Below are positions 1 to 19,787 of a DNA stretch of 64,000 bases, piece after piece. Position numbers and translations under genes: made by a program. The notes below the pieces were generated by a model. That model was given only the letters and a program-made list of their open reading frames with translations, was not told the DNA's origin and did no database searches. Each line of letters opens with the position of its first letter. The stretch's first letter is position 1. Source of the DNA: a virus; IMG/VR virus record IMGVR_UViG_3300042565_001918. One strand, written 5' to 3'.

Positions 1-2343
1 GCACAGGATGCAACATTATATGAAAGTAGTTTTTATAATAGAATTATTAATGGTCAGATGCAGGTTTATTTTCATAATGTTAAAGATGAAAATAATGAAA
101 ATCCAAAAAGTGATTACGGAAACCCACCAATATTAACACCACTACAATTAATAGAAAATTATAAAAACTTAGGGGTTGTAATCTTAATGAAAGGTGTTGA
201 CCCTTATACGACAAGACAAAAAACAAAAATAGATATTTCAAAACCATTTGGACTTGTTGATGGTTCTATGGTTGTTGAGTCGGATTATAAGTTAAACATA
301 CCGATAGCGGAAAATTTAAATCTTCTTAGACATGATTCATTAGTTAATAATAATGTTACATTATTCAATCAATCATATGTGTTTACACCATCAACAGGTA
401 GTGGGGCGTTTAAATACAGCGCTTATACAACACACAACCACTCACTATATTCAAGTTTTGATAATGGACATGATTCAACTAATACAACAATTGGGGTTAC
501 GTCAACAACAAATTCAATAGGATTCCAAATACCAGGACCGATGGGATATTACGCGGCAGGAACTAATGTACAATCAGGTGATTTTGCAGGACTAAACACT
601 TACGTATCAGGACCTAATGGGTATTATACTAACGAATATGTTGAGGGGGGTGGATTAATGGCTAGAATATGTATAGGTGGTTTAGAAGTACCTGGAGATG
701 TAAGTGGGGGTATAGGGTGTGGAGCTGGAAGAATTACATATAACACCAATGTCTATTCAACAGGTATTACTCTTGATATGTCAACAAGTTCTAAAATTAT
801 TATGAGGTCGGACAGACTACCACGTTCAAGCTCATTTGATAATAGATTTGTTTTTGCACAGAATAAAGCATTTTCGGTATTTGCAATATCAGATAGTGGA
901 GCGTCAACCGAAATTGCTGGTAATGTAACATCTAATTCAGACTATAGTACAAATAACGCTGTTGATTTTGAACAAGCGTATGGTACAGGTACCACATCGG
1001 TTATGAGTAGCTTTAGTTGTCCTACCATTGTACCATTAGGTGCATATACACAAAACGCTGGTGCAGGTATGAAAGTTAAACCAAAAACAGATTCAGTTTA
1101 TTACACAGATGGAGATACTGAATACCCAATTATTACAAATGGTTGTTATACTTTAGTTGCCAAAGATTTGGCAATCAGTGCCGATTTAAAATCATTTGCA
1201 GAGTGGAAATCAAGATTCTTAATGGGGTTTGCAATTTGTAGAAATGTGTTTGGTATGACATTTACAAACAATTGGATTAATGGTGTTTTATATATGCCAG
1301 GTTTTCAAAACGATAAAATATATCCTGGTATTCAAACCACTAACCCAACGTATCTTTACTGTAGACAAAAAATTGTTTTCAAAGAAGAAAACAATTCATT
1401 CTTTTATCGCTCAAGTCCATTCAATGGGAATATTGGTACTTTTGTTGGAATGCAAAATACTCAAGTTGCTGATAATTTTGGTAACGTTCAATTCTTAGGT
1501 AATCCAACAACAGTTGTTGATTTGGGACCAAAAGATAATATTATTAAAAATATTTGTGCCCAACCTGAATTTCAAGGGTATGTTGCCGATAGATTAAAGG
1601 CAACATCATTTCAGGGTGTAAGTGATTTAATGCAATATTTTATAATTAGTAGATTAACAAATGCTGACTTTTTAGATAGGTTATTAAGTTTAGGTGATTC
1701 ATCAATTAGTGAATTATTTAGTAGGCCCGCTCAAAAAATTGATGGTGATTTTGCACAATTAAACAGTATTAATAATGAAATTGGTGTTATACCATTTTCA
1801 CCTGAATCTTATAGTGAAGCTAATTTATTTTACGGGGCGACACCAAAACCTGTTGTAGGTGTATTCTTTAGTTCAGATACTGTTACAAGAGATTATATTT
1901 CGCCAGGTCGTGAAATATTTATAGACACATCAACAAAATTTGGGTATAATACTTTTGGACATAAAACCCAAGTAGTTCCAATGTACAGATGGGAAATTAA
2001 ACAAAACGGTACTAGTCCAAGCATGTTTGGTGGCGAAGAAAACAACTGGATAACATCAGGTATCATCTACACAACACCATATCAAGGAATTGATAGATTA
2101 AACGACAGTACTTATTTCCCAAGTTTTGTTAAACATCCAACAGGACAGAGACCTGGTTATATCTATAGTTCATTAGAATCAAAAGACTCTAATGGAAATG
2201 TAACAGGATTTACATATGACGGATTTTATAAACTACCTGACAATAGAATTGTTGTTGGGGCACCTTATCATTTCTATTTTGGATTGAAAAAAGGTAAGAC
2301 CGCTTTTGACATATTTGTAACTAAAAATCTAATTAATATATAA
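1..2343 (+). CDS. Large putative virion structural protein (5' end outside window)
   Basis: Frame is open from base 1 (gca cag gat...) through the ORF-track ATG at 58 to TAA at 2341-2343. First gene of a TAATG-coupled structural operon. No family recognised. Confidence 0.6.
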   Translation, partial: AQDATLYESSFYNRIINGQMQVYFHNVKDENNENPKSDYGNPPILTPLQLIENYKNLGVVILMKGVDPYTTRQKTKIDISKPFGLVDGSMVVESDYKLNIPIAENLNLLRHDSLVNNNVTLFNQSYVFTPSTGSGAFKYSAYTTHNHSLYSSFDNGHDSTNTTIGVTSTTNSIGFQIPGPMGYYAAGTNVQSGDFAGLNTYVSGPNGYYTNEYVEGGGLMARICIGGLEVPGDVSGGIGCGAGRITYNTNVYSTGITLDMSTSSKIIMRSDRLPRSSSFDNRFVFAQNKAFSVFAISDSGASTEIAGNVTSNSDYSTNNAVDFEQAYGTGTTSVMSSFSCPTIVPLGAYTQNAGAGMKVKPKTDSVYYTDGDTEYPIITNGCYTLVAKDLAISADLKSFAEWKSRFLMGFAICRNVFGMTFTNNWINGVLYMPGFQNDKIYPGIQTTNPTYLYCRQKIVFKEENNSFFYRSSPFNGNIGTFVGMQNTQVADNFGNVQFLGNPTTVVDLGPKDNIIKNICAQPEFQGYVADRLKATSFQGVSDLMQYFIISRLTNADFLDRLLSLGDSSISELFSRPAQKIDGDFAQLNSINNEIGVIPFSPESYSEANLFYGATPKPVVGVFFSSDTVTRDYISPGREIFIDTSTKFGYNTFGHKTQVVPMYRWEIKQNGTSPSMFGGEENNWITSGIIYTTPYQGIDRLNDSTYFPSFVKHPTGQRPGYIYSSLESKDSNGNVTGFTYDGFYKLPDNRIVVGAPYHFYFGLKKGKTAFDIFVTKNLINI

Positions 2344-4118
2344 TGGGTAACATTCAAAACGATATAACAATTATTAAAGGTAACCTTAGATACAAAGGTG
2401 CCTCCGAAAGGTTAATATCTTTACCTGTTGAATTTGTTGGTGACCGAAAACAATTAATAGAATCCGATAGAAGTAGAAATATTAATGCTGCGGAACAAAC
2501 TGAAGTTGAAAGACAAGCATCAACAACATTTAGAATCGGTGGAAAAATAACAAACGTATTTTCAAATAGTATTTCAGGAATAACAAATTATGACGGATAT
2601 AAAAATTTCTTATATCTAACAAATCCATTATCTGTTGTCCAAAGCAATCAAATTTTATTTAACAATTTTGAAAGAGTTAAAGACACATTTGGTTTAAAGT
2701 GGGGAGGACTTCCACAGTATAATGAATTTAATTTTATCAGAAACGATGTTGAAAATCCTCATAATGTTTTACAACCACAAAGCGCATCAACATATAATTG
2801 GGGGGTTTATTTAAGTTATCCATTTTCATCTGATACCAAACAACAAATGTCATATGTTGATAAACAAATTAATGGTACACCATTAACATTTATAGCGGAA
2901 GAAGGGATACCTTTTACAATTATCAATACCGTTCAGAAAGGTGTTAACTATATTACTTTTAGATGTGCTGGTAATCACAATTTAAAAACATATCAATATG
3001 TTGAATTATCAATCAACTACAATGGTAATCGTTTATTTAGGGTTGATGTGTTGGGTGAACAAGGATACGATAATAAAAATACAAGTTTTTCATTCATCAA
3101 TCCTGGTTATACAGGAACCACATTTGTAAATGGAGTTTCAGGTACATTTAAAAGAGTCGGAGACATTTCAAATTCAGGTGAAAGTAAATCAAGATATTAT
3201 ATTAGATTACATAAAATCTTAACCAATGAAAATGAGTCGGATGTTTCTAAAATGGGATTTGAACATGCACCATTTTCAAATCAACAAAAAATTGAATATT
3301 CCGCACTTACGCCAAACTTACAACAAAGAGTTTCAATAAAAGAAAACTCACAATCATATAGTTTTACATTTAAAAAAGATTTGAATATCAATACAATGGT
3401 TGATAACAATATGAAACCAATTACAGATGTATTTGTAACAATTGTTAATAAGGGATATTACGGATGGTTTAACAAACCAAACCCAACCACTAATGATAAA
3501 TATGCCCTACAAAAAGGTTGGTCATTTAATTTCCATTCGGATAGTTTGGATGATTGGTGGGAAACAAACAACAGTAAAAACTTGGTTGAAATACCTGTTA
3601 GTTCATATAATAAAGTATCAAACGGTGAACCATATACATTTTATTATAATGAATCATTAAAAATTGATGATGTTTTATCAGGAGATTTTTGTGAATATAA
3701 TGATATTGAACAGATGGAATATGTTATATCAAATTGTAAGCATAAGATAACCTTTAATGACATATTATATCAAACTCAAATATTAGTTCCACCAAGTAAT
3801 AACCCACCTGGTTATTTTTATACACCACACAATGCTGTTAAGTTAAGAGACTTTGCAGATTCTGTTAGCACTGCTGTGGGTCAAAATGTGAATACAAAAC
3901 CCTCATGGGCGTATTTCTCACAAAACCTTAATACTTGGATATATAGAACAATTTTGGAGTATGGTGTTTTTGAAAATGGAAACGGTGTTGATTATCCGTT
4001 TTTAAATGATGCTCATTATCCGTTTTCACAAATATTGTTCTTACAATCAACACCATTTAGTAACATAAACCAATCAGTTGAGGTAACCGCTCAACCAATC
4101 AAAGACGATTGTGAATAA
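2343..4118 (+). CDS. Hypothetical virion/baseplate-region protein
   Basis: 591 aa ORF with TAATG overlap with the upstream stop; beta-rich composition; structural operon context. Confidence 0.6.
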   Translation: MGNIQNDITIIKGNLRYKGASERLISLPVEFVGDRKQLIESDRSRNINAAEQTEVERQASTTFRIGGKITNVFSNSISGITNYDGYKNFLYLTNPLSVVQSNQILFNNFERVKDTFGLKWGGLPQYNEFNFIRNDVENPHNVLQPQSASTYNWGVYLSYPFSSDTKQQMSYVDKQINGTPLTFIAEEGIPFTIINTVQKGVNYITFRCAGNHNLKTYQYVELSINYNGNRLFRVDVLGEQGYDNKNTSFSFINPGYTGTTFVNGVSGTFKRVGDISNSGESKSRYYIRLHKILTNENESDVSKMGFEHAPFSNQQKIEYSALTPNLQQRVSIKENSQSYSFTFKKDLNINTMVDNNMKPITDVFVTIVNKGYYGWFNKPNPTTNDKYALQKGWSFNFHSDSLDDWWETNNSKNLVEIPVSSYNKVSNGEPYTFYYNESLKIDDVLSGDFCEYNDIEQMEYVISNCKHKITFNDILYQTQILVPPSNNPPGYFYTPHNAVKLRDFADSVSTAVGQNVNTKPSWAYFSQNLNTWIYRTILEYGVFENGNGVDYPFLNDAHYPFSQILFLQSTPFSNINQSVEVTAQPIKDDCE

Positions 4119-4977
4119 TTTTAGACTAAGATATAACCCTCTTCAAAACGCAAATACAGATATTGATTTGGCGTTACAGACACCCATCTTAACAACATGG
4201 GATTTAAATGGTGTGAATGAAAGTATTGATGTTTTTGAAAATGAAATTATTCAAAAAGCTGTCAACCCAATTGATAATTTTGAAACCATAAGATATTCAC
4301 ATGCACGTTGGGCTCCTCAGATTATTAATGTTGACCCAAAAACTAGTACCCATTATGATTTTTATTTTTATTCTGCAACAACAGATTCATCAATAACGGC
4401 AACAACAACAAATACGGCATGGGTTACCGATTATAGAGCAAACGGATTTACAAGTAGACAAATTTATTATAATGACGATGTTTTTTCAAAATCATATTTT
4501 AAATTAGATTTTTATGATTCTAAAAAAAGTACATCACAACAAAATTTATTAACAATTATAATTCCAACACAACAAGGTTTAACAACCTCTGCGGTAATTG
4601 GACAAAACACCGTTCAAATTAGAAAACCTGAATATCAATTAAACTTTACTGGTGACAAGGAAGGGTATTTTGTTTATTGGTTAAAATCACCTGAATTTTT
4701 TAATCCTGAAATTAGCACCTTATATATGTCTGCAAAATTTTATGATGCAAGCATTGGTGGATTTAAAAGGATGATGAATTCACCACAAGGTACAATTAAT
4801 AATAAGTTTAACTTTTCACAAGAATTCTATTTTTACTATACACTTAACTTGAATTACGATGATTATACCTATGAGGTATTTTTTAATAATGAACCAAATT
4901 CTTTAAAACCACCCCAATTAATTAAAGTAGGTACTGATTATAATCCTATTAAATGGTACGAATATGTTAATCCATGA
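4111..4977 (+). CDS. Hypothetical virion protein
   Basis: 288 aa ORF with GTG start overlapping the upstream stop. Confidence 0.55.
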   Translation: MNNFRLRYNPLQNANTDIDLALQTPILTTWDLNGVNESIDVFENEIIQKAVNPIDNFETIRYSHARWAPQIINVDPKTSTHYDFYFYSATTDSSITATTTNTAWVTDYRANGFTSRQIYYNDDVFSKSYFKLDFYDSKKSTSQQNLLTIIIPTQQGLTTSAVIGQNTVQIRKPEYQLNFTGDKEGYFVYWLKSPEFFNPEISTLYMSAKFYDASIGGFKRMMNSPQGTINNKFNFSQEFYFYYTLNLNYDDYTYEVFFNNEPNSLKPPQLIKVGTDYNPIKWYEYVNP

Positions 4978-6077
4978 GCACAGAACAATATAATATAGTA
5001 GTATCACAAGAATTTTTAGAATCGGCCAAAGTTGATGTTTATGTTCCATATCCTGACGGAGGTGGTAGAGGTGAACCTGCTTGGACGGGATTAACTTATT
5101 TATTATCGGGTGGAACCAATGGTACATCAATGTTAACAGGTTTAACAATTCCTATTATGTTCAAACAAACATACAAAGACATTGGATATTACTCAGGTTT
5201 TGATGGTGCGATATATCAAAAAGATATTAATAACAATTTTATTTATAGTGGTGTAACGGGAAACTCAGCATATACTTTATATCTTTATAATACATCAGAA
5301 GTATTGGCTCAAGATATTGTTTACGAAGTTGATTGGGGTGATAACCAACCAGTGGAAACAATTACAAAAAAATATCCTGATTACGCATCACATGATTATC
5401 CACCACTTACAAGTGGTACACCAAAAACATATGAAGTTAGATTAAGTGGAACCGCAGCTTGGGGTACAACCGTTACTACAAAAAATGTAACAATGCCATA
5501 TACTGAAATAAGTTTTGATAATCCTGAGGGAGAATATTATTTTGTTCCTCGTGATGGATATTGGTCAGGAACACCAGTTTCATATAAATGGATATTCACA
5601 GGAGACAGTGAAAATAATATTCAAGCGCAAATATCCTCAAATTACACAACAATACCATTTTTGGTATCAGGATTTACAAGTTCAAAAATAACACAATTAA
5701 AACAATATGGTCCAAATCCTTATATTGAAGGAGCACCCGTAATTCAAAAAGGTGAAATTGTTGGATATGTAAAAAACTTGGGACCTGATTATACAGGTTA
5801 TACATATTTGAATACATTATACTATGACTTCCCACAAGGGTATACATTATTCATTGCGAACTCATCAGGATTGACCGAAAACAATATAACACCAGTACCA
5901 ATTGTTAAAGAAGAAATATTAATTGGTATGGTAAACGCGACAGAAATACAATCAAATGTATTTATTAACAGAGGCAAATTATCAGGAACGGAAAGTTTAC
6001 TTAGATTAGGTGAAGTTGACAATCTTGGTGACCTTATAAAATACGGATATGGATATTTTAAACTAACAGAACAATAA
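4974..6077 (+). CDS. Virion protein with PKD/Ig-like domain
   Basis: YEVDWGD...SHDY...YEVRLS resembles the PKD-domain WGD signature; ATGA overlap with the upstream gene. Confidence 0.55.
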   Translation: MSTEQYNIVVSQEFLESAKVDVYVPYPDGGGRGEPAWTGLTYLLSGGTNGTSMLTGLTIPIMFKQTYKDIGYYSGFDGAIYQKDINNNFIYSGVTGNSAYTLYLYNTSEVLAQDIVYEVDWGDNQPVETITKKYPDYASHDYPPLTSGTPKTYEVRLSGTAAWGTTVTTKNVTMPYTEISFDNPEGEYYFVPRDGYWSGTPVSYKWIFTGDSENNIQAQISSNYTTIPFLVSGFTSSKITQLKQYGPNPYIEGAPVIQKGEIVGYVKNLGPDYTGYTYLNTLYYDFPQGYTLFIANSSGLTENNITPVPIVKEEILIGMVNATEIQSNVFINRGKLSGTESLLRLGEVDNLGDLIKYGYGYFKLTEQ

Positions 6078-6078
6078 A

Positions 6079-6990
6079 ATGGCACTAGGAACATATGGTA
6101 TAACTCGCCCAGCCGACATGGCACCTGAAGATGTAGAAATCATCATGGTGTATACACCGTCAAGAGATTTTACGTCAACACCAATAATTAAAAAACTTAA
6201 CTCATCTCAGATATTAACACCGTATTTTAATAACGCAAGTACAGGTGGTAATACAAATGAAATATTGGGGGGTCTTTATAATTTAAAACTACCAGCAACT
6301 GAATTTAACAAAATTGGTATCTACACTTTAATGATTAGACCGGCACAAATCAGAACAACATTAACTGATTGCGGTGTTTTATCAGCATTACCAAGTGTTA
6401 AAGGTATTATTGTTGATACAAACAACGTACCTTCAGCATTTAGAAATAGATTTGTTTCTCAAGGATTGGTTGGTTATCGTGTTGAGTACTTAAACACAGA
6501 TGGTACAAAGATACCAAATTTTTATAGAATTATAACTTCATCATTTTTTGTTGATACTGTCGTTAGTAACCCTGCGGCGGGTAACACAAACTCTGTTAGA
6601 TATAGATACATTGATTCACCAAGTGCAAGAAACTTAGTATTTGCAACGGTATCACCTTCAAGTGCTCCGTCAAACAATCCAAACGCAGTTCCTTACATTG
6701 GACAGCCAGGACAACAAGTTATTTTAACAAATACATTTTTTAACCCATTTACAGTTGAAATTGAAATGGCGGAATACGACTTAAACAGTGTTGCTATCGC
6801 TCTTTATGGTAATCAGACCAAAGCAATTGATACTGGATTATACACTATCTACGACTCAGATAATAGAATTTACAAACAATACAACTTGTTTGAAATTAGA
6901 AGTGACTTTAACGACTTGTTATATGAGGTTCGTCAAGATAGAAACAATAACATTGACTTTAGTGTTAGTTTTGACAACATCATACCATAA
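6079..6990 (+). CDS. Hypothetical virion protein
   Basis: 303 aa ORF in the coupled structural operon. Confidence 0.6.
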   Translation: MALGTYGITRPADMAPEDVEIIMVYTPSRDFTSTPIIKKLNSSQILTPYFNNASTGGNTNEILGGLYNLKLPATEFNKIGIYTLMIRPAQIRTTLTDCGVLSALPSVKGIIVDTNNVPSAFRNRFVSQGLVGYRVEYLNTDGTKIPNFYRIITSSFFVDTVVSNPAAGNTNSVRYRYIDSPSARNLVFATVSPSSAPSNNPNAVPYIGQPGQQVILTNTFFNPFTVEIEMAEYDLNSVAIALYGNQTKAIDTGLYTIYDSDNRIYKQYNLFEIRSDFNDLLYEVRQDRNNNIDFSVSFDNIIP

Positions 6991-9911
6991 TGGCTAAAAT
7001 AGTAGTTCCAAATACTGGCGCAGGTTTTATTAGTCCCAACGAAGATTTAGTTGGATTTCAGACTACGCAAGGTGGTGGATTAACAAATACCAATTTTGTT
7101 TGGAATTACGGGGTTGTTGAAAAAATTGATAAAGATTATCAATCAGGAGTTTTTTCAAACCCAATTACTTTAAGTGATTTAAATGTTGATGTAGAAGAAG
7201 CGAAAAAAGCATTATCGGTTGACCTAAAAGTTTATCCATCATATGATTTAACCGAGGTAACCAATTTTACATTATACGGTTCACTAACCAAAAGATTTTC
7301 AGCATCGGTAACACAAATTATTAATTTCTTTCCAGCGGCGATTGAAGTTGATGAAGTTTATTTTGATTACAGTACCGCAAATACAGCAACAAATATTGTT
7401 TATAATCAAAACGAAAATACGACAAGTTTTGATGTTGATGTATCAAGGATTAAAAATATTTTTGATATTGATTTTTCACAAAACGCAGCAAGAAATATAG
7501 CTCTTAGACCAACACCTGTTAGTCCGTTAAGAGATATGACAAGTTACTATAAAGATTATTCTTTATTTATTGGAACTGGCTCAACTGAATACCAATTCCT
7601 TTTATTCACACCATCAACATCAATAAGTGCTGGTACAATATCAGTTATTGTTAGTGGTAATCCTTTTTCAAGTGTTACTACCACAACAAAAACTTTAGTA
7701 ATGAGACCAAACAAAATGAAAACCGAAATGGTTTTTGAAAATGATTTTGATGCTGTTGAAAAATTCTTATTAAATAGATTTATTGTTCCGAAATATACCG
7801 CTCAGTTTAAACTTCCAAAACAAACTGATGATGGAACTTTTTATACATCATATGTATTTTTGACTTGGCCGTTATTGGGTGTTTGGAATTTAGATATTCT
7901 AACAACCTCCTATGAAGCTTACTTAGAAACATTAAGTTCATATGGTGAACAACTTGATACTTTTAAAACAAATTTAATTAGTAGATTTTTAACCACAGAT
8001 GCTTTTCACGAATTTGATACAAAAGACCAAAAGGTTGATAAAGTATTACAAATATACGGTAGAAGTTTTGATGAAACAAAAGTTTTTATTGATTCATTGG
8101 CAACAATGACATCAGTGGGTTATGTTCCCGAAAATGATATACCATCGGCATTGTTGGTTTATTTGGCAAAAACTTTGGGTTGGGACACAGGTATTTCACC
8201 AATAACTAATGAGGATTTTTTAACAGCAATTTATGGTGTTAAAAACAAATCAATTTATGAAGGTTGGACAAGAGACCAAACACCATCAGAATTAAACTTT
8301 GAATATTATAGAAGATTAATATTAAACGCATCAAATTTATTCCGTTCAAAAGGAACAAGAAAATCTGTTGAATTTTTAATGAGAACGGTTGGAGCACCTG
8401 ATGCCTTAGTTGAATTCAATGAAACAATATACACCGCAGATAGGAAATTAAAATATGCGGATTTCATAACACAATATGTTCAAATTTCGGGTGGAACATA
8501 TTTACAACAATTACCTGGTTATTTACCTGGTTCAGAATATAAAATTAAAGGACAGACATTTAGTGCATTTACAACAAACTTAGCGTCATCGGTATCTGAT
8601 TTTTCAATTACCGACTATCCTATTAACATTGACGGATACCCTAAGACACCTGACCAAACAACAAATTTCTTTTTTCAACAAGGACAAGGTTGGTACGAAC
8701 AAAATTCATTTCACGTTAGTGAAAACGTAGTTCAAGTTTCAACTTTAACATTTACAGGAACAAGTCCAAATACACAAGTGACACAATTAGCACCGTCATT
8801 TGGACAACAATTTTTACAAAGATACAGAAACTTCCCAAATATGGGTAGTTTAGGATTTAATATCACCGCTAACAAAGATAATCAAAAATCTTTAGCTGGT
8901 GGAATACAAGGGGAACTTGATAATAGTTTAGTGTTAAACGTTAAAAATGTTGATTTATTTTTAAATGTTGGACAAGGTATTACTTATGATGTTTGGTCAC
9001 AATCAAATGAATATGATTACCCAATTCCATATACAGGATTAACAACACCATATCCATCACCTGGTAATATTGATTGGACGGTTATAAATCCACAGCCACA
9101 AACAAAAACATTTGCCGAGTTCGCACAATCATTCTACCATAACATGATTAATGTTAGAAACAGATGGTTTACAAACGATGGAAAATCTTCAGGATACCCA
9201 ACACTTCAATTAGTGTATTGGAATTATTTACAGTCATTAGAACTAGCGGGTGTTGATACATCAAAATACACTTACCAAAAAATGATTGACTATTCAATTG
9301 GACTTGGTAGTTATTGGACAAAATTGGTGGAACAAGTAATTCCATCATCAACCATTTGGAATGGTGGAATTAAATACGAAAACTCAGCCTTCCACAGACA
9401 AAAATATGTTTATAGAAAACAAAGAGGTTGTCAGTTCATCGCGGTACCATGTGTACCTTGTACAGCAAACGGTGTTCTATATGCTTACGATTGTATTGAT
9501 GAAACAATATCAGGGTCAACAATTCCTTGGAGTGGAACAAGCTCAACAATTGACTCTTTCTCAGATGCGTTATACACAGCATTAAATGGTGTTGTGGCAA
9601 CACAAGGATATCAATTACAAAACTGTGACCTTAATTCAATAACATCAGTTTGGTATATTGATTTAAGATTAGATGATACAATATTAGTACAACAACCATT
9701 CTTTACAGGGTATGGAATAACAGGTGTACCAACAGAACAACAATGGATTGACGGATTGGATACTTACCTGTCAACTATTTACCAATATGGATTAAACTAT
9801 AATGTTAATTCAGAAAGAATTATAATATCAAACTCAGGTTGTATGGAATTATTTAAAAACAAAACACTTACTCTTAATATAGGGATAAACGCAAATATTT
9901 CTTGTGGATAA
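6990..9911 (+). CDS. Putative baseplate wedge subunit (P2 gpI / T4 gp7-like core)
   Basis: LVYLAKTLGWD...YYRRLILNASNLFRSKGTRKSVEFLM resembles the wedge-protein 'KGT' motif of myovirus baseplates. Confidence 0.55.
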   Translation: MAKIVVPNTGAGFISPNEDLVGFQTTQGGGLTNTNFVWNYGVVEKIDKDYQSGVFSNPITLSDLNVDVEEAKKALSVDLKVYPSYDLTEVTNFTLYGSLTKRFSASVTQIINFFPAAIEVDEVYFDYSTANTATNIVYNQNENTTSFDVDVSRIKNIFDIDFSQNAARNIALRPTPVSPLRDMTSYYKDYSLFIGTGSTEYQFLLFTPSTSISAGTISVIVSGNPFSSVTTTTKTLVMRPNKMKTEMVFENDFDAVEKFLLNRFIVPKYTAQFKLPKQTDDGTFYTSYVFLTWPLLGVWNLDILTTSYEAYLETLSSYGEQLDTFKTNLISRFLTTDAFHEFDTKDQKVDKVLQIYGRSFDETKVFIDSLATMTSVGYVPENDIPSALLVYLAKTLGWDTGISPITNEDFLTAIYGVKNKSIYEGWTRDQTPSELNFEYYRRLILNASNLFRSKGTRKSVEFLMRTVGAPDALVEFNETIYTADRKLKYADFITQYVQISGGTYLQQLPGYLPGSEYKIKGQTFSAFTTNLASSVSDFSITDYPINIDGYPKTPDQTTNFFFQQGQGWYEQNSFHVSENVVQVSTLTFTGTSPNTQVTQLAPSFGQQFLQRYRNFPNMGSLGFNITANKDNQKSLAGGIQGELDNSLVLNVKNVDLFLNVGQGITYDVWSQSNEYDYPIPYTGLTTPYPSPGNIDWTVINPQPQTKTFAEFAQSFYHNMINVRNRWFTNDGKSSGYPTLQLVYWNYLQSLELAGVDTSKYTYQKMIDYSIGLGSYWTKLVEQVIPSSTIWNGGIKYENSAFHRQKYVYRKQRGCQFIAVPCVPCTANGVLYAYDCIDETISGSTIPWSGTSSTIDSFSDALYTALNGVVATQGYQLQNCDLNSITSVWYIDLRLDDTILVQQPFFTGYGITGVPTEQQWIDGLDTYLSTIYQYGLNYNVNSERIIISNSGCMELFKNKTLTLNIGINANISCG

Positions 9912-12034
9912 TGGCAAATTTTCAATATGAGTTTTCAGTAACAGGTGATTGTACAAGTAATGGTAGTGGTGCTATCTATATATCTCTTTCGGGAGGTGTT
10001 GAACCATATACAATTGATTGGGTAAATCCAAATATTGGAACAGGTAGTACCAAGACAGGGTTAGACGCTGGTGTTTATATTGTAAGAGCTAACGACGCTT
10101 TAGGTGATGTTAACAATGAGTTTTACATCAACATGATAGTATCAAGCGGTGGTTGTTTAAGTGTAAGTTCAGTTAGTGCAACTACTTGTGGAGAAAATAA
10201 TGGGGTTGTCACCATTAGTGGAGCATCAACCGCATACCCAATTACTATTAATATTTATTCGGGAACAACTTTAATCCAATCGGCAATTACCACAACAGGT
10301 GATGTTTCTTTTATAAATTTAGCACCTGGCGTTTATAATACATATTATGAAGATTATGGTGGTTGTTCAGGATATTCAGAATCTGTAATAGTAAATTCAT
10401 CAACACCTGTTGATTATGGATTTTTTATTGTAAATGATACAAATTGTTTTGGAGCAACAGGTAAATTACAAATTACAGGATTAACGGGTTCAGTACCATT
10501 TACATACCTTTGGAGTAATGGTTCAACGGGAACAACAATAACAGGATTAACCGCATCAACTTATAGTGTTACGGTAACTGATTCTGAGGGATGTAGTGTA
10601 ACTAAAGCCGTTGAAGTTAAAAAAGCCGACCCATTACAAATAGTATCTTTTCAAACCGTAAGCCCAAGTTGTTTTGCTGCTGATGGTTCTGTTAATTTAA
10701 TTATTACAGGCGGAACTGGTCCGTATTTTTATTCGGGAACTAATGGAACTACTTTAATTAGTTACGCAACTAATTTAACTTTTACAGGTTTCACGCCAGG
10801 AACCGCAATTTTTACGGTAACAGATTCAACACTATGTTCTGTGACAGGTAGTACTTACTTACAAGCCGACGCTGGATTCTCGGTATTAGCAATTTCAACA
10901 CAAAATTCAACATGTTCCGCAAGTGGTGGAACAATATCAATTAATGTTGTTGGTAATGGACCGTTTACCTATACGTTAGTTAAACCAGATTCAAGTACGG
11001 AATCTTTCACAACAAATTTAACAACTCAAAATTATAATGATTTAGATTCGGGTGATTATACAATAATCATTACTAACACTAATGGTTGTGTATTCACACA
11101 AGAAGTCACATTATATACAACAGACAAATTTAGTTTAACAACAATACTTTCAGGTACAACATGTGGACAAAATAATGGTTCATGTTATTTAGAAGTTGGT
11201 ACCGGATATACAGGTGTGTTGGATATGATATTAACTAAAAATAATGTACCCGTAATTCAATACATTGATGTACCACAATCTGCGGTTACATTTAATGGAC
11301 TATCTTCAGGTAGTTATACATTACAAGTAAGAGACGCTGACAACTGTTCGGTATACCAATCATTTTCAATCGGTGCATCTAATTCATTAGACTTTGGAAT
11401 GAGTAGTACTAGTTGTGGTGATACCAATTCAGGTGGAACAATTAATGTCAGTATATTTTCAGGTACACCACCGTTTACATATCAGTGGTCAGACAACGTA
11501 CCAATAACCGAATCAGGTCCAAGTATTTCAAATTTAACTGGTGGAACATATACATTAACTGTTTTAGATTCAAGTAACTGTATTTTAACAAGAAATGTTA
11601 CGGTTCCTTGTACACCATTTATTAATGACTACCAAGTTATACCAATTATTAGTAATGGATTTACAACCACAGTTAATAACAAAAGAGATTTTGAAACAAT
11701 GGTTAATGAAGGGTTTTATGATTTGACTACGGGAAATACAAATTGTGTTTTAGTTTCGGCGGTATATGCAGCAACAATTGAAATTAGTGGTAACACATAT
11801 GAACAAAATTTTTATACAGGAACAACATTAACAGATGTACCAACAGAATCTGAATGGGTAGATGCCTTGGAGAGTATATTATCAGGAATTACGGGTGTTT
11901 TAAGTTATACCGTTAATCCATCAACAAATACAGTTGAAGTAAAATCATTTTGTGACGGAAACGAAGACACATTAAGTGATTCTGAATTTATCATGGGGTT
12001 GAGAATTCAATATAATATTATTTGTGAATCGTAA
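9911..12034 (+). CDS. SprB-repeat-containing virion protein
   Basis: Repeated SprB-type units (GGVEPYTIDW, PFTYLWSNGSTGTTITGLTASTYSVTVTDSEGC, GTPPFTYQWS...GTYTLTVLDSSNC). Start moved from 9902 to the ATG at 9911 (TAATG coupling). Confidence 0.75.
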   Translation: MANFQYEFSVTGDCTSNGSGAIYISLSGGVEPYTIDWVNPNIGTGSTKTGLDAGVYIVRANDALGDVNNEFYINMIVSSGGCLSVSSVSATTCGENNGVVTISGASTAYPITINIYSGTTLIQSAITTTGDVSFINLAPGVYNTYYEDYGGCSGYSESVIVNSSTPVDYGFFIVNDTNCFGATGKLQITGLTGSVPFTYLWSNGSTGTTITGLTASTYSVTVTDSEGCSVTKAVEVKKADPLQIVSFQTVSPSCFAADGSVNLIITGGTGPYFYSGTNGTTLISYATNLTFTGFTPGTAIFTVTDSTLCSVTGSTYLQADAGFSVLAISTQNSTCSASGGTISINVVGNGPFTYTLVKPDSSTESFTTNLTTQNYNDLDSGDYTIIITNTNGCVFTQEVTLYTTDKFSLTTILSGTTCGQNNGSCYLEVGTGYTGVLDMILTKNNVPVIQYIDVPQSAVTFNGLSSGSYTLQVRDADNCSVYQSFSIGASNSLDFGMSSTSCGDTNSGGTINVSIFSGTPPFTYQWSDNVPITESGPSISNLTGGTYTLTVLDSSNCILTRNVTVPCTPFINDYQVIPIISNGFTTTVNNKRDFETMVNEGFYDLTTGNTNCVLVSAVYAATIEISGNTYEQNFYTGTTLTDVPTESEWVDALESILSGITGVLSYTVNPSTNTVEVKSFCDGNEDTLSDSEFIMGLRIQYNIICES

Positions 12035-12363
12035 TGGCAGCAAGATTAACCATACAATCAATAACAGGAACGTCACCGTATGATTTTTATGTTTGTGACA
12101 TATACGAAAATAATTGTTCTTTATTGGGGTCGGTATCAACTGATTCACCTGACCCAATTTTTATATTACCGAGTTTATTTAATTTAGCGCCACAAATCAT
12201 GATTAAGATGATTGATGCTAATAATTGTGAGATTAAAAAAATATTAACATGTGACTTAACTTGTAGTTTCCAAGTCATAATTAATACTGCTGAGTGCACA
12301 TTTTGTGTTGTTGTTGAACCTGATTTAACGTGTGGGTTTGCGCCATACATTGAAACAATTTAA
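12034..12363 (+). CDS. Small Cys-rich protein, paralog of 60834..61142
   Basis: SITG-PY-Y-CD-Y-N-C...LP--FN-AP---KMID---CE pattern shared with 60834..61142. Confidence 0.65.
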   Translation: MAARLTIQSITGTSPYDFYVCDIYENNCSLLGSVSTDSPDPIFILPSLFNLAPQIMIKMIDANNCEIKKILTCDLTCSFQVIINTAECTFCVVVEPDLTCGFAPYIETI

Positions 12364-12403
12364 AAAAATAAATTGTTCAACAATATTAAACTGATTTTAA
12401 TTG

Positions 12404-12410
12404 TATTTAT
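12404..12410 (+). promoter_or_regulatory. Putative late promoter TATTTAT
   Basis: TATTTAT 21 nt before ATG 12432; same motif recurs before 11 other genes. Confidence 0.55.
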
Positions 12411-12431
12411 GTATTAACCTAGATAATAATT

Positions 12432-13949
12432 ATGCCATCTTTAGATACTGTATCCATTTATATTGTAAATAACGCACCAGGTTGTTCAGACCTAACAGTT
12501 GAATCACAAGTAAGTTTTTCATCATGTGCCCAAACATATATAGTAAGAATTTCTAATCAATCTAATGCGGTAGGACCATTCAGTATTTACTCAGGTTCAA
12601 CATCAGGAACACCTATAGTATCAGGGGTTACAAGAGTTAATATGGTTGCAGGTCAAAGTATTTTATTATACAATGAAGACCAAACAGGATGTGAAACACC
12701 AACTCCGACACCTACACCAACCGTTACACCAACACCAAGTATTACACCTACTACGACACCAGCGGTCGCTCCAACAAGTACGCCAACACCAACGCCAAGT
12801 ATTACACCAACTAATACGGTAACACCTACTAACACATCTACTCCAACTAATACTATTACACCTACCAATACGGTTACTCCAACTAATACTGTTACACCTA
12901 CTAACACTGTTACACCAACTAATACGGCAACGCCTACTAATACTGTTACACCAACTAATACAGTTACGCCAACCAATACGGTAACTCCTACTAACACTAT
13001 CACCCCGACTAACACACCAACTAATACGGTAACGCCAACCAATACGCCAACCAATACAGTTACACCAACCAATACGGTTACTCCTACTAATACGGTTACA
13101 CCGACTAATACAGTAACACCAACGAATACGGTTACTCCTACTAATACACCTACCAATACCGTAACTCCAACCAATACAGTTACTCCAACCAATACAGTAA
13201 CACCAACTAAGACTCCAACCAATACTCCAACTAATACACCAACCAATACGGTAACACCAACTGAAACTCCAACTAATACACCAACTAATACTCAAACGCC
13301 AACAACAACTCAAACGCCAACTAACACTGTAACACCAACCAATACCGTGACACCAACCGTTACACAAACACCTAGTCCTAGCCCTGTATTACCACCAGCT
13401 TTGTTATTCATACAACCTGACTCTGGTTCTGGTTCAATATATACGGACATTAATACCTATTTATTCAACACAGGAAGTACCTTTTGGTTTGGATTTCCTG
13501 CGTTACCTGACGAATTGGGTACTACAACTCCGGTATCGGACGTTGTTAATTGGATGTATATGTATGCAACATCAGGAGTAACAGGTCTTCCGGCTGTAAG
13601 ACAATTAACAATAACATCAAATTTATTTGATGAATTTAACATACCTTCGGGTACTGTTCCATCAGGTGGTATCTATGGCACTGGAAGTGCGTCACATGTT
13701 ATTTTAGTACCGACATCAACTTTAGTTGGATATGAAAAACAAATAAATCAAGGAACATCTAGTCCACCTGCAGATACTATGAATATGGATAATTTAATAT
13801 ATTATAATGGTGGTGCTGCAATTATAAATTATGTGGGTCCTGTATTTGCAAATACATCATATAGAATGTATGTTGTTTCCGATATGACAGGACTTCCAAA
13901 CACAAATACTTGGTATTATAAAGGAAGTTTATATTCATTAACCCCGTAA
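12432..13949 (+). CDS. Mucin-like Thr/Pro-repeat virion protein
   Basis: Central ~230 aa of [10 protein letters not shown] repeats between globular N- and C-terminal domains. Confidence 0.75.
12696..13385 (+). repeat. Coding tandem repeat, 18-bp unit encoding TVTPTN
   Basis: Many imperfect copies of acNgtNacNccNacNaay with synonymous variation. Confidence 0.9.
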
Positions 13950-13965
13950 TAACTAGAGAAATAAA

Positions 13966-16900
13966 ATGAGTTTTCCGTATAAAAACCCAATAAGTTCAAA
14001 ACAATTAACTGGCTCTGATTCTGTTGCCGTTGGTAAAGTATTTGGTACTAACTTTTCAGTTCTCCAAACTGGTGGATATATGGAAGTGTATAGTATGTCT
14101 GATTTGGATTGGACAACTAATAACGCTGTCGGCACTATTGAGTATTCGGGAAATACTATACCAATTCAGTTTTCTAGAAGAACTATACCTGCATTACCAG
14201 ACACTTTAACGTTAAATTCTGATAATATTTCTTCAGGAAGACGAAGATTAGGTATGTTAGTTTATGTGTATGAAACACAACAAACTTATCAATATAATAT
14301 ACCAAACTACGAGTCATTATGGAATTCAATTACAGGATTGACAGGTGTTTCGGCAATTACACAAGGTACATATTCAACAACAGTTAACACTCGTTCAGCG
14401 GCAGGTACCGCATTTGTTAATTCTTGGACTGGGTCAACAGTTGAAGGTATATCGGGTGTAACATCATCTAACGCCAATTGGAGAATTTATAGAGGTGGTG
14501 GGGTTCAAATCACAGGTGGAACATATAACTCAGGAACAACAACATTAGATTTATACAACAACACTGGTGGAACAATATCAATCACAGGATTTACATCAGG
14601 TGGTGGAGGTGGAACCACAGTTACAGGTGGAACTTTTGACCACAATACAGGAACTTTAACAATTAATAGTAGTGACGCATCTTCTGTTAATATTTCAGGA
14701 TTTACGGATGTTTATACCACAGGTGGAACCTTAAGCGGAGCAACACTTGTATTATACGATTCAACGGGTGGAACTGTTAATATTTCAGGATTTACAATTT
14801 TAGACCATATTAGTTATGGTGAAGCCTCAAATTTAGATACAGGATTAAGAGTTATTGATACCGAACCTACGAGTGGGGTTACAGGTATTTTTTATAATTA
14901 TATTTTAACAAACTGTGACAATTACAGGGCAGGAACATTTACAATTATAACAGATAGAACAAATGTTGATTGGACGGAAGTATGTACCTTAGATTTAGGC
15001 TATACTGATGATGTTATATTAAGCGCAGATATTAATTCAGGTTTAATTAGATTTTTGGGAACATTCCCAAGCAATGATTGGCAGTTGAATTATGTTAAGA
15101 ATACAATTGGTTCAACTTGTGTTAATCCAGCACCATCGGCAACACCAACGAATACACCAACACCAACGAATACACCAACACCAAGTACTAGTTCAATAAT
15201 TCCATCTGCAACACCAACAAGTACGATTACACCAACGGTCACACCAACCAATACCCCAACAAGCACGGTTACACCAACCAATACGGAAACTCCGACAAAT
15301 ACGCCAACACCAACGGTTACACCAACCAATACGGTTACACCAACGGAAACTCCGACAAATACGCCAACACCAACAATAACACCAACCAATACGGTAACAC
15401 CTAGCACAACACCGTATTTGTATGGTTGTGAGTATCAGTTTAATTATACGGGTACAGGATTTACCGCACCTCCATCATACACTGTTAGTTGGTTAGATTA
15501 TTATGGTAACCCACAATCACAAACATTTACGGCTGACAATCAAGTAGTTGGAACATTCTGTGCACAATGTGGTTCATATAATAATGGTGGAAATGTTGAC
15601 ATCAATGCTAATTTAATTGGTGCATGTAGTTCATTACCGACACCGACACCTACGACAACTACAACACCAACAAATACGCCTACTCCAACGGAGACACCTA
15701 CCAATACGCCAACCGTAACACCAACAAATACACCAACTGAAACTCCTACCAATACACCAACTCCAACAGGAACGTCTATTGCTGAGACTCCTACCAATAC
15801 ACCAACCAATACGGAAACTCCGACTAATACACCGTCACCAACAGTAACACCTACTAATACGGAAACTCCTACAAACACTCCAACACCAACGGTGACTGAA
15901 ACTCCGACTAATACGCCTACACCGACTGAGACTCCTACAAATACTCCAACACCATCAGTAACTCCAATACCTGTTACAGGATATGGATTTAATTTAGTGG
16001 CAACACCTTACAATGTACCAACAATATCAGGAACAAGTATTATAAATAATGTTGCACCATTAAATACTGGTGACACTAACCCTAACGTATTCGCAAATGG
16101 AGCACCAAATCCTCAAGGATTCTATTTTAATCCAATTGACTATACAGGTGTTGATAGAACTAATTATTTCTCAGGATTTACAGGACAAAGTATTACAATA
16201 ACATTCAATCAAACAGGAAGTACATCTATCTATTCGGGTGATACTAATTCATTACAAACTTGGTCGGCATCAGGATTTACAGGATTTGTATTTGGTAAGG
16301 GTATTTCACAAGCATCAGGTGTAACAGGTAATACAGTCTTAGTACAATCTGCAACAACTCAGTGGGTTACAGGTCAAACTGTTTACGTTAGCGTGGAAAT
16401 TAATGTTCCTGTAACACCAACCCCTACACCAACTAATACGGAAACTCCGACTAATACACCGTCACCAACAGTAACACCTACTAATACGGAAACTCCTACA
16501 AACACTCCAACTGAGACACCTACTAACACTCCAACACCTACAATTAGTGAAACACCAACTGAGACACCAACACCAACTCCGACAGAAACTCCGACAGGAA
16601 CACCAGCGGTGACAGAAACACCAACTGAGACTCCAACTGAAACAACGACTCCAACACCGACGGCAACAGAAACACCAACTAATACTCCAACTGCGAGTGT
16701 AACACCAACTAATACTCAAACTCCATCAGTTACGCCAACATTAACTCAAACACCAACTTCAACTAATTTGAGTTCAATAACTACATACAGTATTTCAGGA
16801 TGTACTAATCTAAATGTTTTAGTTGTTGATTTAGGACCAGGATTTATAGTTCCTGGAGATGTAAACTATTACACATTCACAGGAGCAACACCAAGTGGAT

Positions 16901-17109
16901 GTTATTCAGTCATTGGTAAGATAAATGCTCCGATAGACGATGCGTTTACCGCATCATTTGGATATGGTGGATGTAATGATTGTGAGATTTCTAATATAAC
17001 TCCAACCCCAACACCAACTAACACTGAAACACCAACAAATACTCCAACGAATACTAACACAACAACAATAACTCCTACTCCAACTGTAACCCCTACGAAT
17101 ACTAAATAG
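13966..17109 (+). CDS. Modular fibre/decoration protein with four Thr/Pro linkers
   Basis: RRRLGMLVYV motif typical of phage fibre N-termini, TGGT repeats, small beta domains separated by TPTNT/TPTET tracts. Confidence 0.7.
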   Translation: MSFPYKNPISSKQLTGSDSVAVGKVFGTNFSVLQTGGYMEVYSMSDLDWTTNNAVGTIEYSGNTIPIQFSRRTIPALPDTLTLNSDNISSGRRRLGMLVYVYETQQTYQYNIPNYESLWNSITGLTGVSAITQGTYSTTVNTRSAAGTAFVNSWTGSTVEGISGVTSSNANWRIYRGGGVQITGGTYNSGTTTLDLYNNTGGTISITGFTSGGGGGTTVTGGTFDHNTGTLTINSSDASSVNISGFTDVYTTGGTLSGATLVLYDSTGGTVNISGFTILDHISYGEASNLDTGLRVIDTEPTSGVTGIFYNYILTNCDNYRAGTFTIITDRTNVDWTEVCTLDLGYTDDVILSADINSGLIRFLGTFPSNDWQLNYVKNTIGSTCVNPAPSATPTNTPTPTNTPTPSTSSIIPSATPTSTITPTVTPTNTPTSTVTPTNTETPTNTPTPTVTPTNTVTPTETPTNTPTPTITPTNTVTPSTTPYLYGCEYQFNYTGTGFTAPPSYTVSWLDYYGNPQSQTFTADNQVVGTFCAQCGSYNNGGNVDINANLIGACSSLPTPTPTTTTTPTNTPTPTETPTNTPTVTPTNTPTETPTNTPTPTGTSIAETPTNTPTNTETPTNTPSPTVTPTNTETPTNTPTPTVTETPTNTPTPTETPTNTPTPSVTPIPVTGYGFNLVATPYNVPTISGTSIINNVAPLNTGDTNPNVFANGAPNPQGFYFNPIDYTGVDRTNYFSGFTGQSITITFNQTGSTSIYSGDTNSLQTWSASGFTGFVFGKGISQASGVTGNTVLVQSATTQWVTGQTVYVSVEINVPVTPTPTPTNTETPTNTPSPTVTPTNTETPTNTPTETPTNTPTPTISETPTETPTPTPTETPTGTPAVTETPTETPTETTTPTPTATETPTNTPTASVTPTNTQTPSVTPTLTQTPTSTNLSSITTYSISGCTNLNVLVVDLGPGFIVPGDVNYYTFTGATPSGCYSVIGKINAPIDDAFTASFGYGGCNDCEISNITPTPTPTNTETPTNTPTNTNTTTITPTPTVTPTNTK
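15808..16511 (+). repeat. 77-bp exact direct repeat (15808-15884 and 16435-16511)
   Basis: aatacggaaactccgactaatacaccgtcaccaacagtaacacctactaatacggaaactcctacaaacactccaac occurs at both positions. Confidence 0.85.
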
Positions 17110-17120
17110 AACTATTTAGA

Positions 17121-17127
17121 TATTTAT
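17121..17127 (+). promoter_or_regulatory. Putative late promoter TATTTAT
   Basis: 21 nt upstream of the portal ATG. Confidence 0.55.
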
Positions 17128-17148
17128 TGTTATACTTAAAATTGTAAT

Positions 17149-19050
17149 ATGGAAAATAATAATCAAAATCTAACAATTTGGCAAAGGTTATCCAAAACAT
17201 TTGGACCGAACTCCTTATTGGGTCAAGATTTACCCACATACTCATTAGATAAAAAAGAGTTACTTAAAACTACAAATAAACAAGAGTATGAAAAGGAAAA
17301 ATTACAGGCTCAACAATCCATGTATTTATCGGGTCAATGGGCAAAAATTGAAAACAATCTTTATACTCAAGCAATTTACTATGAACCAACACGATTGGCG
17401 GCATTTTATGATTATGAATCAATGGAATTTACACCTGAGATATCAACCGCATTAGATATATATGCTGAAGAATCAACAACTCCAAATCAAGATGGTTTTA
17501 TTTTACAAATATATTCCGAATCAAAAAGGGTAAAAGGTATTTTAACTGATTTATTTAATAATGTATTGGATGTTAATACCAATTTACAGATGTGGACAAG
17601 AAATACCTGTAAATATGGTGACAATTTTGTGTATCTAAAATTAGACCCCGAAAAGGGTATTGTTGGTTGTATGCAATTACCAAACATTGAGATTGAACGA
17701 TTAGAAAGAGGAATGGCAGCAAAATCAGTAAATGCCGAAGTTGACCCAAAAGAAAAAGGGTTAAGATTCAAATGGAAAGTAAAAGACATGGAATTTAATA
17801 GTTGGGAGGTTGCTCACTTTAGATTACTTGGTGATGATAGAAAACTACCTTACGGAACTTCCATGTTGGAGAAAGCAAGAAGAATTTGGAAACAATTATT
17901 ATTATCGGAAGATGCGATGTTAATCTATAGGACATCAAGAGCACCTGAAAGAAGAGTGTTTAAAGTGTTTGTTGGTAATATGGATGATAAAGATGTTGAA
18001 CCTTACGTACAACGTGTTGCAAACAAATTTAAGCGTGATCAAATCGTTGATAATAAAACAGGAAACGTGGATATGAGATTTAACCAAATGGCTGTGGATC
18101 AGGATTATTTTGTTCCTGTACGTGATGTTACACAAACAATGCCGATTGAGACATTACCAGGAGCTCAGAACTTATCTGAAATAGCGGATATTGAATACAT
18201 CCAAAAGAAATTAGTGACCGCATTACGTGTACCAAAAGCATACTTAGGGTTTGAGGAAGTGGTTGGTGATGGTAAGAACTTATCATTACAAGATATTCGT
18301 TTTGCAAGAACTATTAATAAAATACAAAAAGCAATGATTGCAGAAATGAATAAAATTGCAATCATTCACTTATTTATTTTAGGTTTTGAGGATGATCTAC
18401 AAAACTTTACATTAGGGTTAACCAATCCTTCGAAACAAGCTGATTTATTAATGATTGATGTTTGGAAAGAAAAAGTATTATTATATAAAGATTTAGTGTC
18501 AGAAATACCTAATAGTTTGGCCCCAACTTCGGCAACTTGGGCTAAGAAACATATTTTTGGTTTCTCAGATGAGGATATTAAATTAGACACACAACAACAA
18601 AGATTAGAAAGAGCGGTTGCCGCTGAATTAGCAAATACCGCAACTGTTATTACACATACAGGTATGTTTGATGTTGTGGATAGATTATATAAATCTAAAT
18701 CAGGTTCGACAGAAAATCCACCAGCAGGAGGAGCACCTCCATCAGGTGGTGGTGGAGGATCATTCGGAGGTGGAGGATCATTACCTGACTTCGGAGGTGG
18801 GGGAGAAACTTCACCTGAACCTCCATTACCACCATTAGGGGGTGAAGAAGTTGGTGGGGCACCTGAAGCTCCAGCGGCACCAGGGGCTCCACCTGAAGAA
18901 GAAACTTTACCTGAAGGAAAGAAAAATGATAACTTAAATATCTTACTAGAAAGTGATGATATTTATGGTGATAAGTACATTGATTTATCTAAAGGTAGAA
19001 ATTCTTTAGGTTCAATTGAAAATGAACTGAGCAAATTATTAAGAGATTGA
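17149..19050 (+). CDS. Portal protein (T4 gp20-like)
   Basis: Y..ME..PEI..ALD, EDAMLIYRTSRAPERRVF, IETLPGAQNL, DIEYIQKKL..ALRVP are gp20 family motifs; Gly/Pro-rich C-terminal tail. Confidence 0.95.
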   Translation: MENNNQNLTIWQRLSKTFGPNSLLGQDLPTYSLDKKELLKTTNKQEYEKEKLQAQQSMYLSGQWAKIENNLYTQAIYYEPTRLAAFYDYESMEFTPEISTALDIYAEESTTPNQDGFILQIYSESKRVKGILTDLFNNVLDVNTNLQMWTRNTCKYGDNFVYLKLDPEKGIVGCMQLPNIEIERLERGMAAKSVNAEVDPKEKGLRFKWKVKDMEFNSWEVAHFRLLGDDRKLPYGTSMLEKARRIWKQLLLSEDAMLIYRTSRAPERRVFKVFVGNMDDKDVEPYVQRVANKFKRDQIVDNKTGNVDMRFNQMAVDQDYFVPVRDVTQTMPIETLPGAQNLSEIADIEYIQKKLVTALRVPKAYLGFEEVVGDGKNLSLQDIRFARTINKIQKAMIAEMNKIAIIHLFILGFEDDLQNFTLGLTNPSKQADLLMIDVWKEKVLLYKDLVSEIPNSLAPTSATWAKKHIFGFSDEDIKLDTQQQRLERAVAAELANTATVITHTGMFDVVDRLYKSKSGSTENPPAGGAPPSGGGGGSFGGGGSLPDFGGGGETSPEPPLPPLGGEEVGGAPEAPAAPGAPPEEETLPEGKKNDNLNILLESDDIYGDKYIDLSKGRNSLGSIENELSKLLRD

Positions 19051-19057
19051 TATTTAT
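19051..19057 (+). promoter_or_regulatory. Putative late promoter TATTTAT
   Basis: Immediately after the portal stop, 13 nt before ATG 19071. Confidence 0.55.
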
Positions 19058-19070
19058 AATAAAAAAGATT

Positions 19071-19787
19071 ATGAAATTCGGTAAATTAAAATCAAAAATA
19101 GAAAACAAATTAGTTGAATCATACAAAAATGATACAATTAAAACTGATATGTCTAAATTTAACTCTTTGGTGTTAAAGAATAAAAATGTTTCTAAACTTT
19201 TTTATCTATATGATGAATTAACAACGAATAAAGGTCTAAATGAATCCATTGCAAACGAATATATTAATCAAAGTATTACCGCTTATGAAAATTCAATAAA
19301 CAAAATTTCACCAAAAGATTTAAAACCTTTAAATGATTGGGTTGAGGGATCAGAATATGGTAATGAATATGATGTCGTTGATAATTTATTCTCAACGGGT
19401 ATTACAAAGTTAGAAGAAAAAATTACAAGTAAAAAAACAATTTTGGAAACAATTACAAAATCCCCGAAAGAGAATAAAGAAGTTATTAATGTACCTTTAA
19501 AAACTATGGTGGGAATAGCAAACAAAACTATTAGTAATTACGTAAGTAATCTAAGTGAATCTGATCAGAAAAAATTAAAAACTATTTTGTCTTCTAATGA
19601 AGATGAATTAAAAGAAAAATATAACTCTTTAAAAGAGAGTGTAATCTCCAAGTTAGAGAAAATCCAAGAGAGTGAGCAAGATAAAGAAGTAGGAAATGCA
19701 ATCAATGAAACAATTGAAAAAGTTAGTTCTGAATCATTTGATAAGTTGACTTATTTAAAACTACAAGAATTAAATAATAATCTTTAA
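19071..19787 (+). CDS. Hypothetical helical head-module protein
   Basis: Lys/Glu-rich ORF after the portal. Start reassigned to ATG 19071 because the promoter motif lies inside the longer ORF call. Confidence 0.65.
   Translation: MKFGKLKSKIENKLVESYKNDTIKTDMSKFNSLVLKNKNVSKLFYLYDELTTNKGLNESIANEYINQSITAYENSINKISPKDLKPLNDWVEGSEYGNEYDVVDNLFSTGITKLEEKITSKKTILETITKSPKENKEVINVPLKTMVGIANKTISNYVSNLSESDQKKLKTILSSNEDELKEKYNSLKESVISKLEKIQESEQDKEVGNAINETIEKVSSESFDKLTYLKLQELNNNL

Follow-up and report, generated by a model that had tools for sequence, protein, structure and literature searches.

A switch in GATC content marks a probable chimera of two related phages in a viral metagenomic contig

We analyzed a 64,000-nucleotide (nt) stretch of viral metagenomic DNA (IMG/VR record IMGVR_UViG_3300042565_001918; hereafter the window) whose left part lacks the tetranucleotides GATC and TCGA. 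From sequence comparison, we estimate a probability of roughly 80% that the window is a chimeric metagenomic contig of two co-occurring phages, denoted X, a GATC- and TCGA-free lake phage, and Y, a GATC-normal sister phage (L and G numbers below are contig labels of relatives). In this reading, bases 1 to about 17042 would come from X and those from about 16735 onward from Y, with the source changing inside a 308-nt stretch common to both. The initial annotation had placed the boundary in the portal gene, at the first GATC, and attributed it to homologous recombination between lineages, with a chimeric assembly of two relatives as the alternative. The features that bear directly on the join are as follows, with Pro/Thr abbreviated as PT, open reading frame as ORF and amino acids as aa.

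1..16734, plus strand: phage X-only block, 99.4-100% identical to L184, L188, L194, L195, L197 and L198; 0 GATC, 0 TCGA, 4 CCGG
13966..17109, plus strand: hybrid ORF of 1047 aa by translation, its body from X and its last 67 nt from Y
16735..17042, plus strand: 308-nt shared stretch, consisting of a Cys-rich module (D4) and linker, identical in X and Y
17043..64000: phage Y sequence, 99.9-100% identical to L175, L177, L178 and L087; 140 GATC, about 3 per kb
17149..19050, plus strand: T4-type portal gene (gp20-like; Pfam Portal_T4, 2e-72), all Y
18037..18040: first GATC of the window, an identical site in all Y-strain contigs

An automated count over the entire window returns 140 GATC and 24 TCGA, the earliest at 18037 and 18430, respectively. 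A second-order Markov model, which takes trinucleotide content into account, predicts 44.1 GATC and 13.5 TCGA in positions 1-18036, where neither is found (Poisson P about 1e-19 and about 1e-6); TCGA is still missing up to 18429, and CCGG is depleted over 1-18036 (4 vs about 33 expected). The absence of GATC from 1-18036 is real and far beyond chance. These counts agree with the manual scan in the initial annotation, which had reported no GATC in 1-18036 and no TCGA in 1-18429; every GATC and TCGA position that it named is correct, its estimate of about 20 GATC before 25.1 kb corresponds to 22 counted between 18037 and 25100, and both words do occur in the PT-rich genes at 52-61 kb. It had also proposed setting counts of 4-6 bp palindromes against a Markov expectation; when all 256 tetramers are compared in this way over 1-18036, none is as depleted as GATC and TCGA.

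Same-strain contigs of both sides, obtained through exact-protein look-ups, locate the change of source. On the left, the X contig L188 agrees with the window at every position of 9843-17042 and diverges from 17043, and a second X contig, L184, matches 4349-17042 and ends exactly at 17042. On the right, two Y contigs from two samples, L175 and L087, which are 100% identical to each other, match the window from 16735 to 19968 and from 16735 to the contig's own end at 19772, respectively, again with 0 differences, and both diverge leftward. The longest exact match between L188 and L175 is 308 nt (window 16735-17042; L188 6893-7200; L175 2964-3271), and the ends of this interval lie 107-414 nt upstream of the portal start. 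Since X identity extends up to 17042 and Y identity begins at 16735, the contig appears to pass from X to Y inside this 308-nt repeat. Wider comparisons also give different closest relatives on each side: the left block matches GATC-free contigs, and portal-bearing relatives align to the window only from about 17110 rightward. A junction at 16408-16735, placed with IMG/VR relatives alone, was replaced by the 308-nt repeat once the same-strain X contigs were available. The D4 module and its linker are 100% identical in X and Y, which are otherwise 65-80% identical, and the gene that carries D4 differs, being a fiber-like gene in X and a small spacer gene between TerL and portal in Y; the Y strains L176 and L179 have a 132-aa gene without D4. 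This distribution suggests recent lateral movement of a domain cassette.

Both parental continuations through the repeat are found independently of the window. The true X gene, in L188, runs on to encode 1255 aa, and a collagen-repeat gene (L188 7923-9056) comes next, a gene order likewise seen in the close X relatives L084 and L085. In true Y, TerL is followed by a 282-aa D4 gene and then the portal; this path from Y to Y is seen in L175, L087, L211 and a contig of 0.2-1 Mb, and the 282-aa product is on record in at least three further samples as well as on a 0.2-1 Mb contig. The exact hybrid 1047-aa product, looked up in the same way as an exact protein, has no record in any assembly. The two exact Y proteins looked up for this purpose occur on 0.2-1 Mb contigs and the two exact X proteins never do, a pattern in favor of separate genomes.

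Gene order on the two sides of the join was compared with that of the relatives. Of the 52 relatives with enough flanking sequence, 51 have TerL as the immediate upstream neighbor of the portal; the window has no TerL anywhere, and no portal-bearing relative has left-block genes within 10 kb upstream of its portal. Two long relatives, G001 (GATC-free) and G005 (GATC-normal), are colinear with window positions 17-62 kb downstream of the portal and carry their left-block homologues about 80-108 kb downstream of it; over 13-34 kb upstream of the portal they are colinear with one another and unrelated to the left block. The join thus violates the conserved gene order of the group. Many contigs also break at the repeat itself, L184 ending at 17042 and L177, L178 and L180 beginning at 16911-16953. 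At least seven independent X-lineage contigs (L187, L189, L190, L191, L197, L198 and L199) end in PT tracts at ~12.66-12.84 kb and ~15.39 kb. Assemblies of this phage group break systematically in PT linkers, and the many contig ends at the repeat or at other PT tracts are the signature of an unresolved assembly-graph repeat.

To place the GATC-free block among the relatives, we read five long contigs in full (86-158 kb, 665 kb total; G005 corresponds to labels L110-L117 and G007 to L163-L169), with the following observed/expected site counts.

G005, 158 kb: GATC 600/581, TCGA 3/120, CCGG 97/206
G004, 150 kb: GATC 532/555, TCGA 69/223, CCGG 95/175
G001, 134 kb: GATC 0/375, TCGA 90/159, CCGG 45/147
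G007, 138 kb: GATC 0/430, TCGA 270/331, CCGG 0/112
G008, 86 kb: GATC 0/253, TCGA 134/141, CCGG 197/144

Each of the five is uniform in GATC status from end to end, G001 lacking the word over its full length with the head genes included, and the longest GATC-free gap in the GATC-normal members is 1.5-1.9 kb, compared with the 18 kb seen in the window. The 80 portal-bearing relatives include clades with 0 GATC to the left and right of the portal and clades with 3-4 per kb to the left and right. Depletion thus characterizes an entire genome or lineage and not a single gene, and the purged words differ by lineage: GATC in G001 and G008, TCGA in G005, GATC and CCGG in G007, and GATC and TCGA in X. 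Consistent with the last of these, GATC is absent from 24 X-like contigs (263 kb total) and TCGA from six same-strain X contigs. The proposal in the initial annotation that the left block stems from a lineage under GATC and TCGA restriction is therefore borne out insofar as the block belongs to a lineage without both words; the other part of that proposal, that restriction enzymes drove the avoidance, is one that we infer, with MboI/DpnII/Sau3AI-like, TaqI-like and HpaII/MspI-like enzymes as the putative targets to be evaded. A search for Dam-type methyltransferases, which might have been confined to GATC-normal lineages, covered five relatives that are about 50% or less complete and gave matches in the GATC-free G007 only. 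CATG is strongly depleted in G004, G005 and G008. TCGA is spread unevenly in the window, where 12 of the 24 sites fall within the 6.6-kb head-gene stretch (18430-25012) and the rest in 25013-64000, and in G004, where 44 of 69 fall in one 25-kb region (50-75 kb); such unevenness within GATC-normal genomes may reflect further mosaicism or gene-specific constraint.

A simple sequence of events would account for the window as a chimera of X and Y. The X lineage would have shed every GATC and TCGA and most CCGG through classical avoidance of 4-bp Type II sites, with Y keeping GATC at about 3 per kb. The shared module, a Cys-rich domain with PT linkers flanking it, sits inside a long fiber-like gene in X and in a small gene between TerL and portal in Y. 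A short-read assembler would thus meet the same exact 308 nt on two incoming and two outgoing paths that it could not resolve, and the contig would have come in from X and gone out into Y. The two sources, the repeat that they share, both parental paths and the broken gene order are observed, and we infer that assembly, and not an event in a cell, produced the join. It is probably not biological because the conserved synteny is disrupted, the window has no TerL, each parental continuation is found independently, the hybrid is reproduced in no other assembly and contigs break at the repeat; the chimeric assembly that the initial annotation had listed as its alternative is accordingly the reading favored here.

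Several observations weigh against such an origin. The 308 nt of identity are ample for genuine homologous recombination and themselves show that X and Y, or their recent ancestors, exchanged DNA in the past. The path from X to X through the repeat is fully seen in one assembly only, that of L188. Finally, two pairs of contigs, L027/L028 and L034/L025, switch reproducibly from GATC-normal to GATC-poor just after the portal; the members of each pair come from different samples, are 99.8-99.9% identical and switch at syntenic positions, with normal GATC upstream of and within the portal and almost none for 3-4.5 kb downstream. Because of these syntenic switches, natural mosaics of GATC-free and GATC-normal lineages probably occur in this family.

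We nevertheless regard it as unlikely that the GATC-free block and the remainder truly belong together, whether as a natural X/Y hybrid or as a host-recognition island in Y. In the first case, X and Y would have co-infected a cell and crossed over in the 308-nt module, leaving the X fiber block next to the Y portal in a genome or a defective by-product. The length of exact identity would suffice for this, PT-linker module shuffling is rife in the family and syntenic switches in GATC status recur in other contigs. With the left-block homologues about 80-108 kb beyond the portal and unrelated DNA in front of it, a crossover of X and Y in D4 would be non-allelic; it would lose TerL and everything between the fiber block and the portal, which in G001 and G005 amounts to at least 34-37 kb. 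One would not expect such a product to multiply to an abundance at which it could be assembled, and it is seen in no other assembly, whereas both parental forms are. A real recombinant of this kind is thus improbable. Were either the hybrid or the island real, it would mean the very recent uptake by a ~300-kb phage of a fiber/baseplate module of 17+ kb from a differently restricted lineage, a host-range jump caught before the sequence adapts.

Slightly more doubtful still is a single genome: Y would have acquired the GATC-free block as an island from an X-like donor, in the place where such a block normally lies, and would carry the 308-nt module as a repeat within its own genome. The contact of the block with the portal would even then be a mis-join, and the mosaic itself would be real. 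Gene conversion within a genome easily keeps a repeat exact, and none of the X-strain contigs exceeds 24 kb, so that their wider context is unseen. The 0.2-1 Mb contigs that carry exact Y proteins speak against an island, being without the exact X protein encoded at 6079-6990, a protein still conserved in X-like strains of about 95% nucleotide identity. So do the lack of GATC throughout the X-like contigs and G001, the normal GATC content of the left-block homologues in G005 and the existence of X-signature contigs for other regions, namely, L052 for the portal region and L126 for a homologue of 52-61 kb. An attempt to connect L052, a GATC- and TCGA-free portal contig, to X through G001 gave identities of only 72-77% and no link.

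Recombination inside the conserved portal, joining the two lineages at about 18.04 kb, has next to no probability left. The first GATC does fall within the portal, but X identity stops at 17042, before the portal start at 17149, and GATC-normal contigs agree at every base with the entire portal and the 414 nt in front of it, so that nothing changes at 18037. Over its full length the gene has 0 differences to L087, L175 and L001, and it diverges evenly throughout from L011 and L003, so that these identity profiles refute a crossover there: the 5' and 3' parts do not differ in the closest relatives. The GATC-free stretch ends in the portal for another reason. Positions 17043-18036 hold no GATC, with about 3 expected, and are identical in independent Y contigs; a portal whose first 888 nt lack GATC is common, occurring in 14 of 45 GATC-normal relatives; and true Y carries GATC in the upstream TerL gene and has a natural 1.7-kb gap around the portal start. 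These comparisons identify 17043-18036 as native Y sequence and the GATC at 18037 as an ordinary phage Y site and no boundary, and the boundary of origin that the initial annotation had read from the end of the GATC-free stretch moves to 16735-17042. Finally, chance or the amino acid composition of the encoded proteins, suggested by the fact that codons of PT linkers cannot contain GATC, is refuted by 0 sites against the 40-44 expected from trinucleotide content (P below 1e-17) and by the homologous genes of G005, which hold 20 GATC in 6 kb.

Taking the window to be a chimera of X and Y has practical consequences. At face value, the contig would have given a recombination hotspot in the portal gene; it is unfit for inferences on gene order, host range or recombination across 16.7-17.1 kb. 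More generally, an abrupt change in the content of restriction sites is a sensitive indicator of chimerism in viral contigs. The identity of a Cys-rich domain and its PT linkers in two otherwise diverged phages demonstrates a recent exchange of modules, and lineage-specific purged palindromes could help assign these abundant ~300-kb lake phages to hosts with matching restriction systems.

The remaining features of the window are listed below; the Y block (17043..64000) comprises the portal, bS21, prohead protease, major capsid protein (MCP), a sugar/glycosyltransferase cluster, PT-rich lectin-like proteins and a collagen-like ORF.

1..16734, plus strand: putative baseplate/fiber genes, including an SprB-repeat protein and two modular proteins with PT linkers
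9902-12034, plus strand: SprB-repeat protein (Pfam SprB match)
12432-13949: ORF with a PT tract at ~12.66-12.84 kb
Modules of the hybrid ORF, with PT linkers between them: D1, aa 1-385; D2, aa 484-557; D3, aa 666-814; D4, aa 938-1009
15808..16511, plus strand: module D3 between exact 77-nt PT-linker repeats (copies at 15808-15884 and 16435-16511)
19784..19972, minus strand: bS21 gene, marker of the bS21-phage group (Pfam Ribosomal_S21, 8e-8)
20553-21290: S77 prohead protease, T4-like head module
23154-25034: gp23-type capsid protein, T4-like head module
33642-50000, minus strand: nucleotide-sugar/glycosyltransferase cluster with GDP-mannose dehydratase, two DegT-type enzymes and several GT2/GT-B genes
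57004-60801: 1265-aa PT-rich protein with a Laminin_G_3/ConA-like lectin domain at its end
61177-64000: collagen-like ORF with long Gly-X-Y, at the right end of the window, Y

Apart from the SprB repeats and phrog_15511, the left-block proteins have no match in Pfam or PHROGs, and the assignment of this block to the baseplate or fibers is tentative. The portal, the S77 protease and the gp23-type capsid protein identify a T4-like head module. The position of the glycosyltransferase cluster is conserved in G005 and G001. The collagen-like ORFs of Y (61177-64000) and of X (L188 7923-9056) have unrelated N-termini. The SprB repeat points to Bacteroidota, and X and Y are members of a group of ~300-kb, bS21-encoding freshwater Bacteroidota myophages. 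The GC content of the window is 32.4%, and its freshwater relatives in IMG/VR number in the hundreds, those of 134-158 kb being rated 43-51% complete; among INPHARED phage records, nothing exceeds 40% portal identity to the window portal. An attempt to close a circle between the tail of G005 and the head of G001 found no overlap.

Within the hybrid ORF, the 77-nt repeat was considered as a k=77 assembly-graph artefact and rejected because both copies are intact and unchanged in two independent X contigs, L188 and L184. In the closest X relative, L085, D3 is missing and the gene stops just past this point. A metagenome scan with the D3-D4 protein, dominated by its low-complexity PT pattern, returned only the distant or partial L125 and L126 among the matches listed.

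Tail-fiber domains of T-even phages are exchanged as modules, with linker-flanked domains moving between genes and lineages. The family described here is alike in that D3 and D4 occur in different genes and orders among relatives; it is unlike in that the linkers are long PT tracts and the fiber role of the proteins is putative. Restriction-site avoidance in phage genomes is a known phenomenon, surveyed by Rusinov et al. (2018; PMC6286503), and what is real here is ordinary avoidance that differs between lineages. X resembles the surveyed cases in that palindromes typical of Type II systems, GATC, TCGA and CCGG, are lost fully or nearly so across the lineage, and this group departs from them in that sister lineages purge different words.

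The freshwater Bacteroidetes phages that encode bS21 have genomes of 293-331 kb and a conserved TerL/portal/bS21/protease/MCP region, in which only a few genes separate bS21 from TerL, the portal, the protease and MCP (Chen et al., 2022; PMC9723584); GATC or restriction is mentioned 0 times in that paper. The window matches this group in having bS21 on the reverse strand between portal and prohead protease with MCP nearby, in its GC content of about 32% and in having relatives from freshwater metagenomes. Same-strain Y contigs match it further in having TerL nearby, and the window differs from it in having no TerL, although the conserved region of the group has one.

Finally, contigs mis-joined at sequence common to related co-occurring viruses are a problem that has been evaluated previously (PMC4247695). 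The window resembles such chimeric contigs in that its closest relative switches inside an exact repeat longer than a read, the parental paths are found in other assemblies, many contigs terminate at the repeat, the gene order is disrupted and this contig alone has the hybrid. It differs from them in that the repeat encodes a protein domain that the phages have exchanged as a module, a place where a biological crossover is conceivable.

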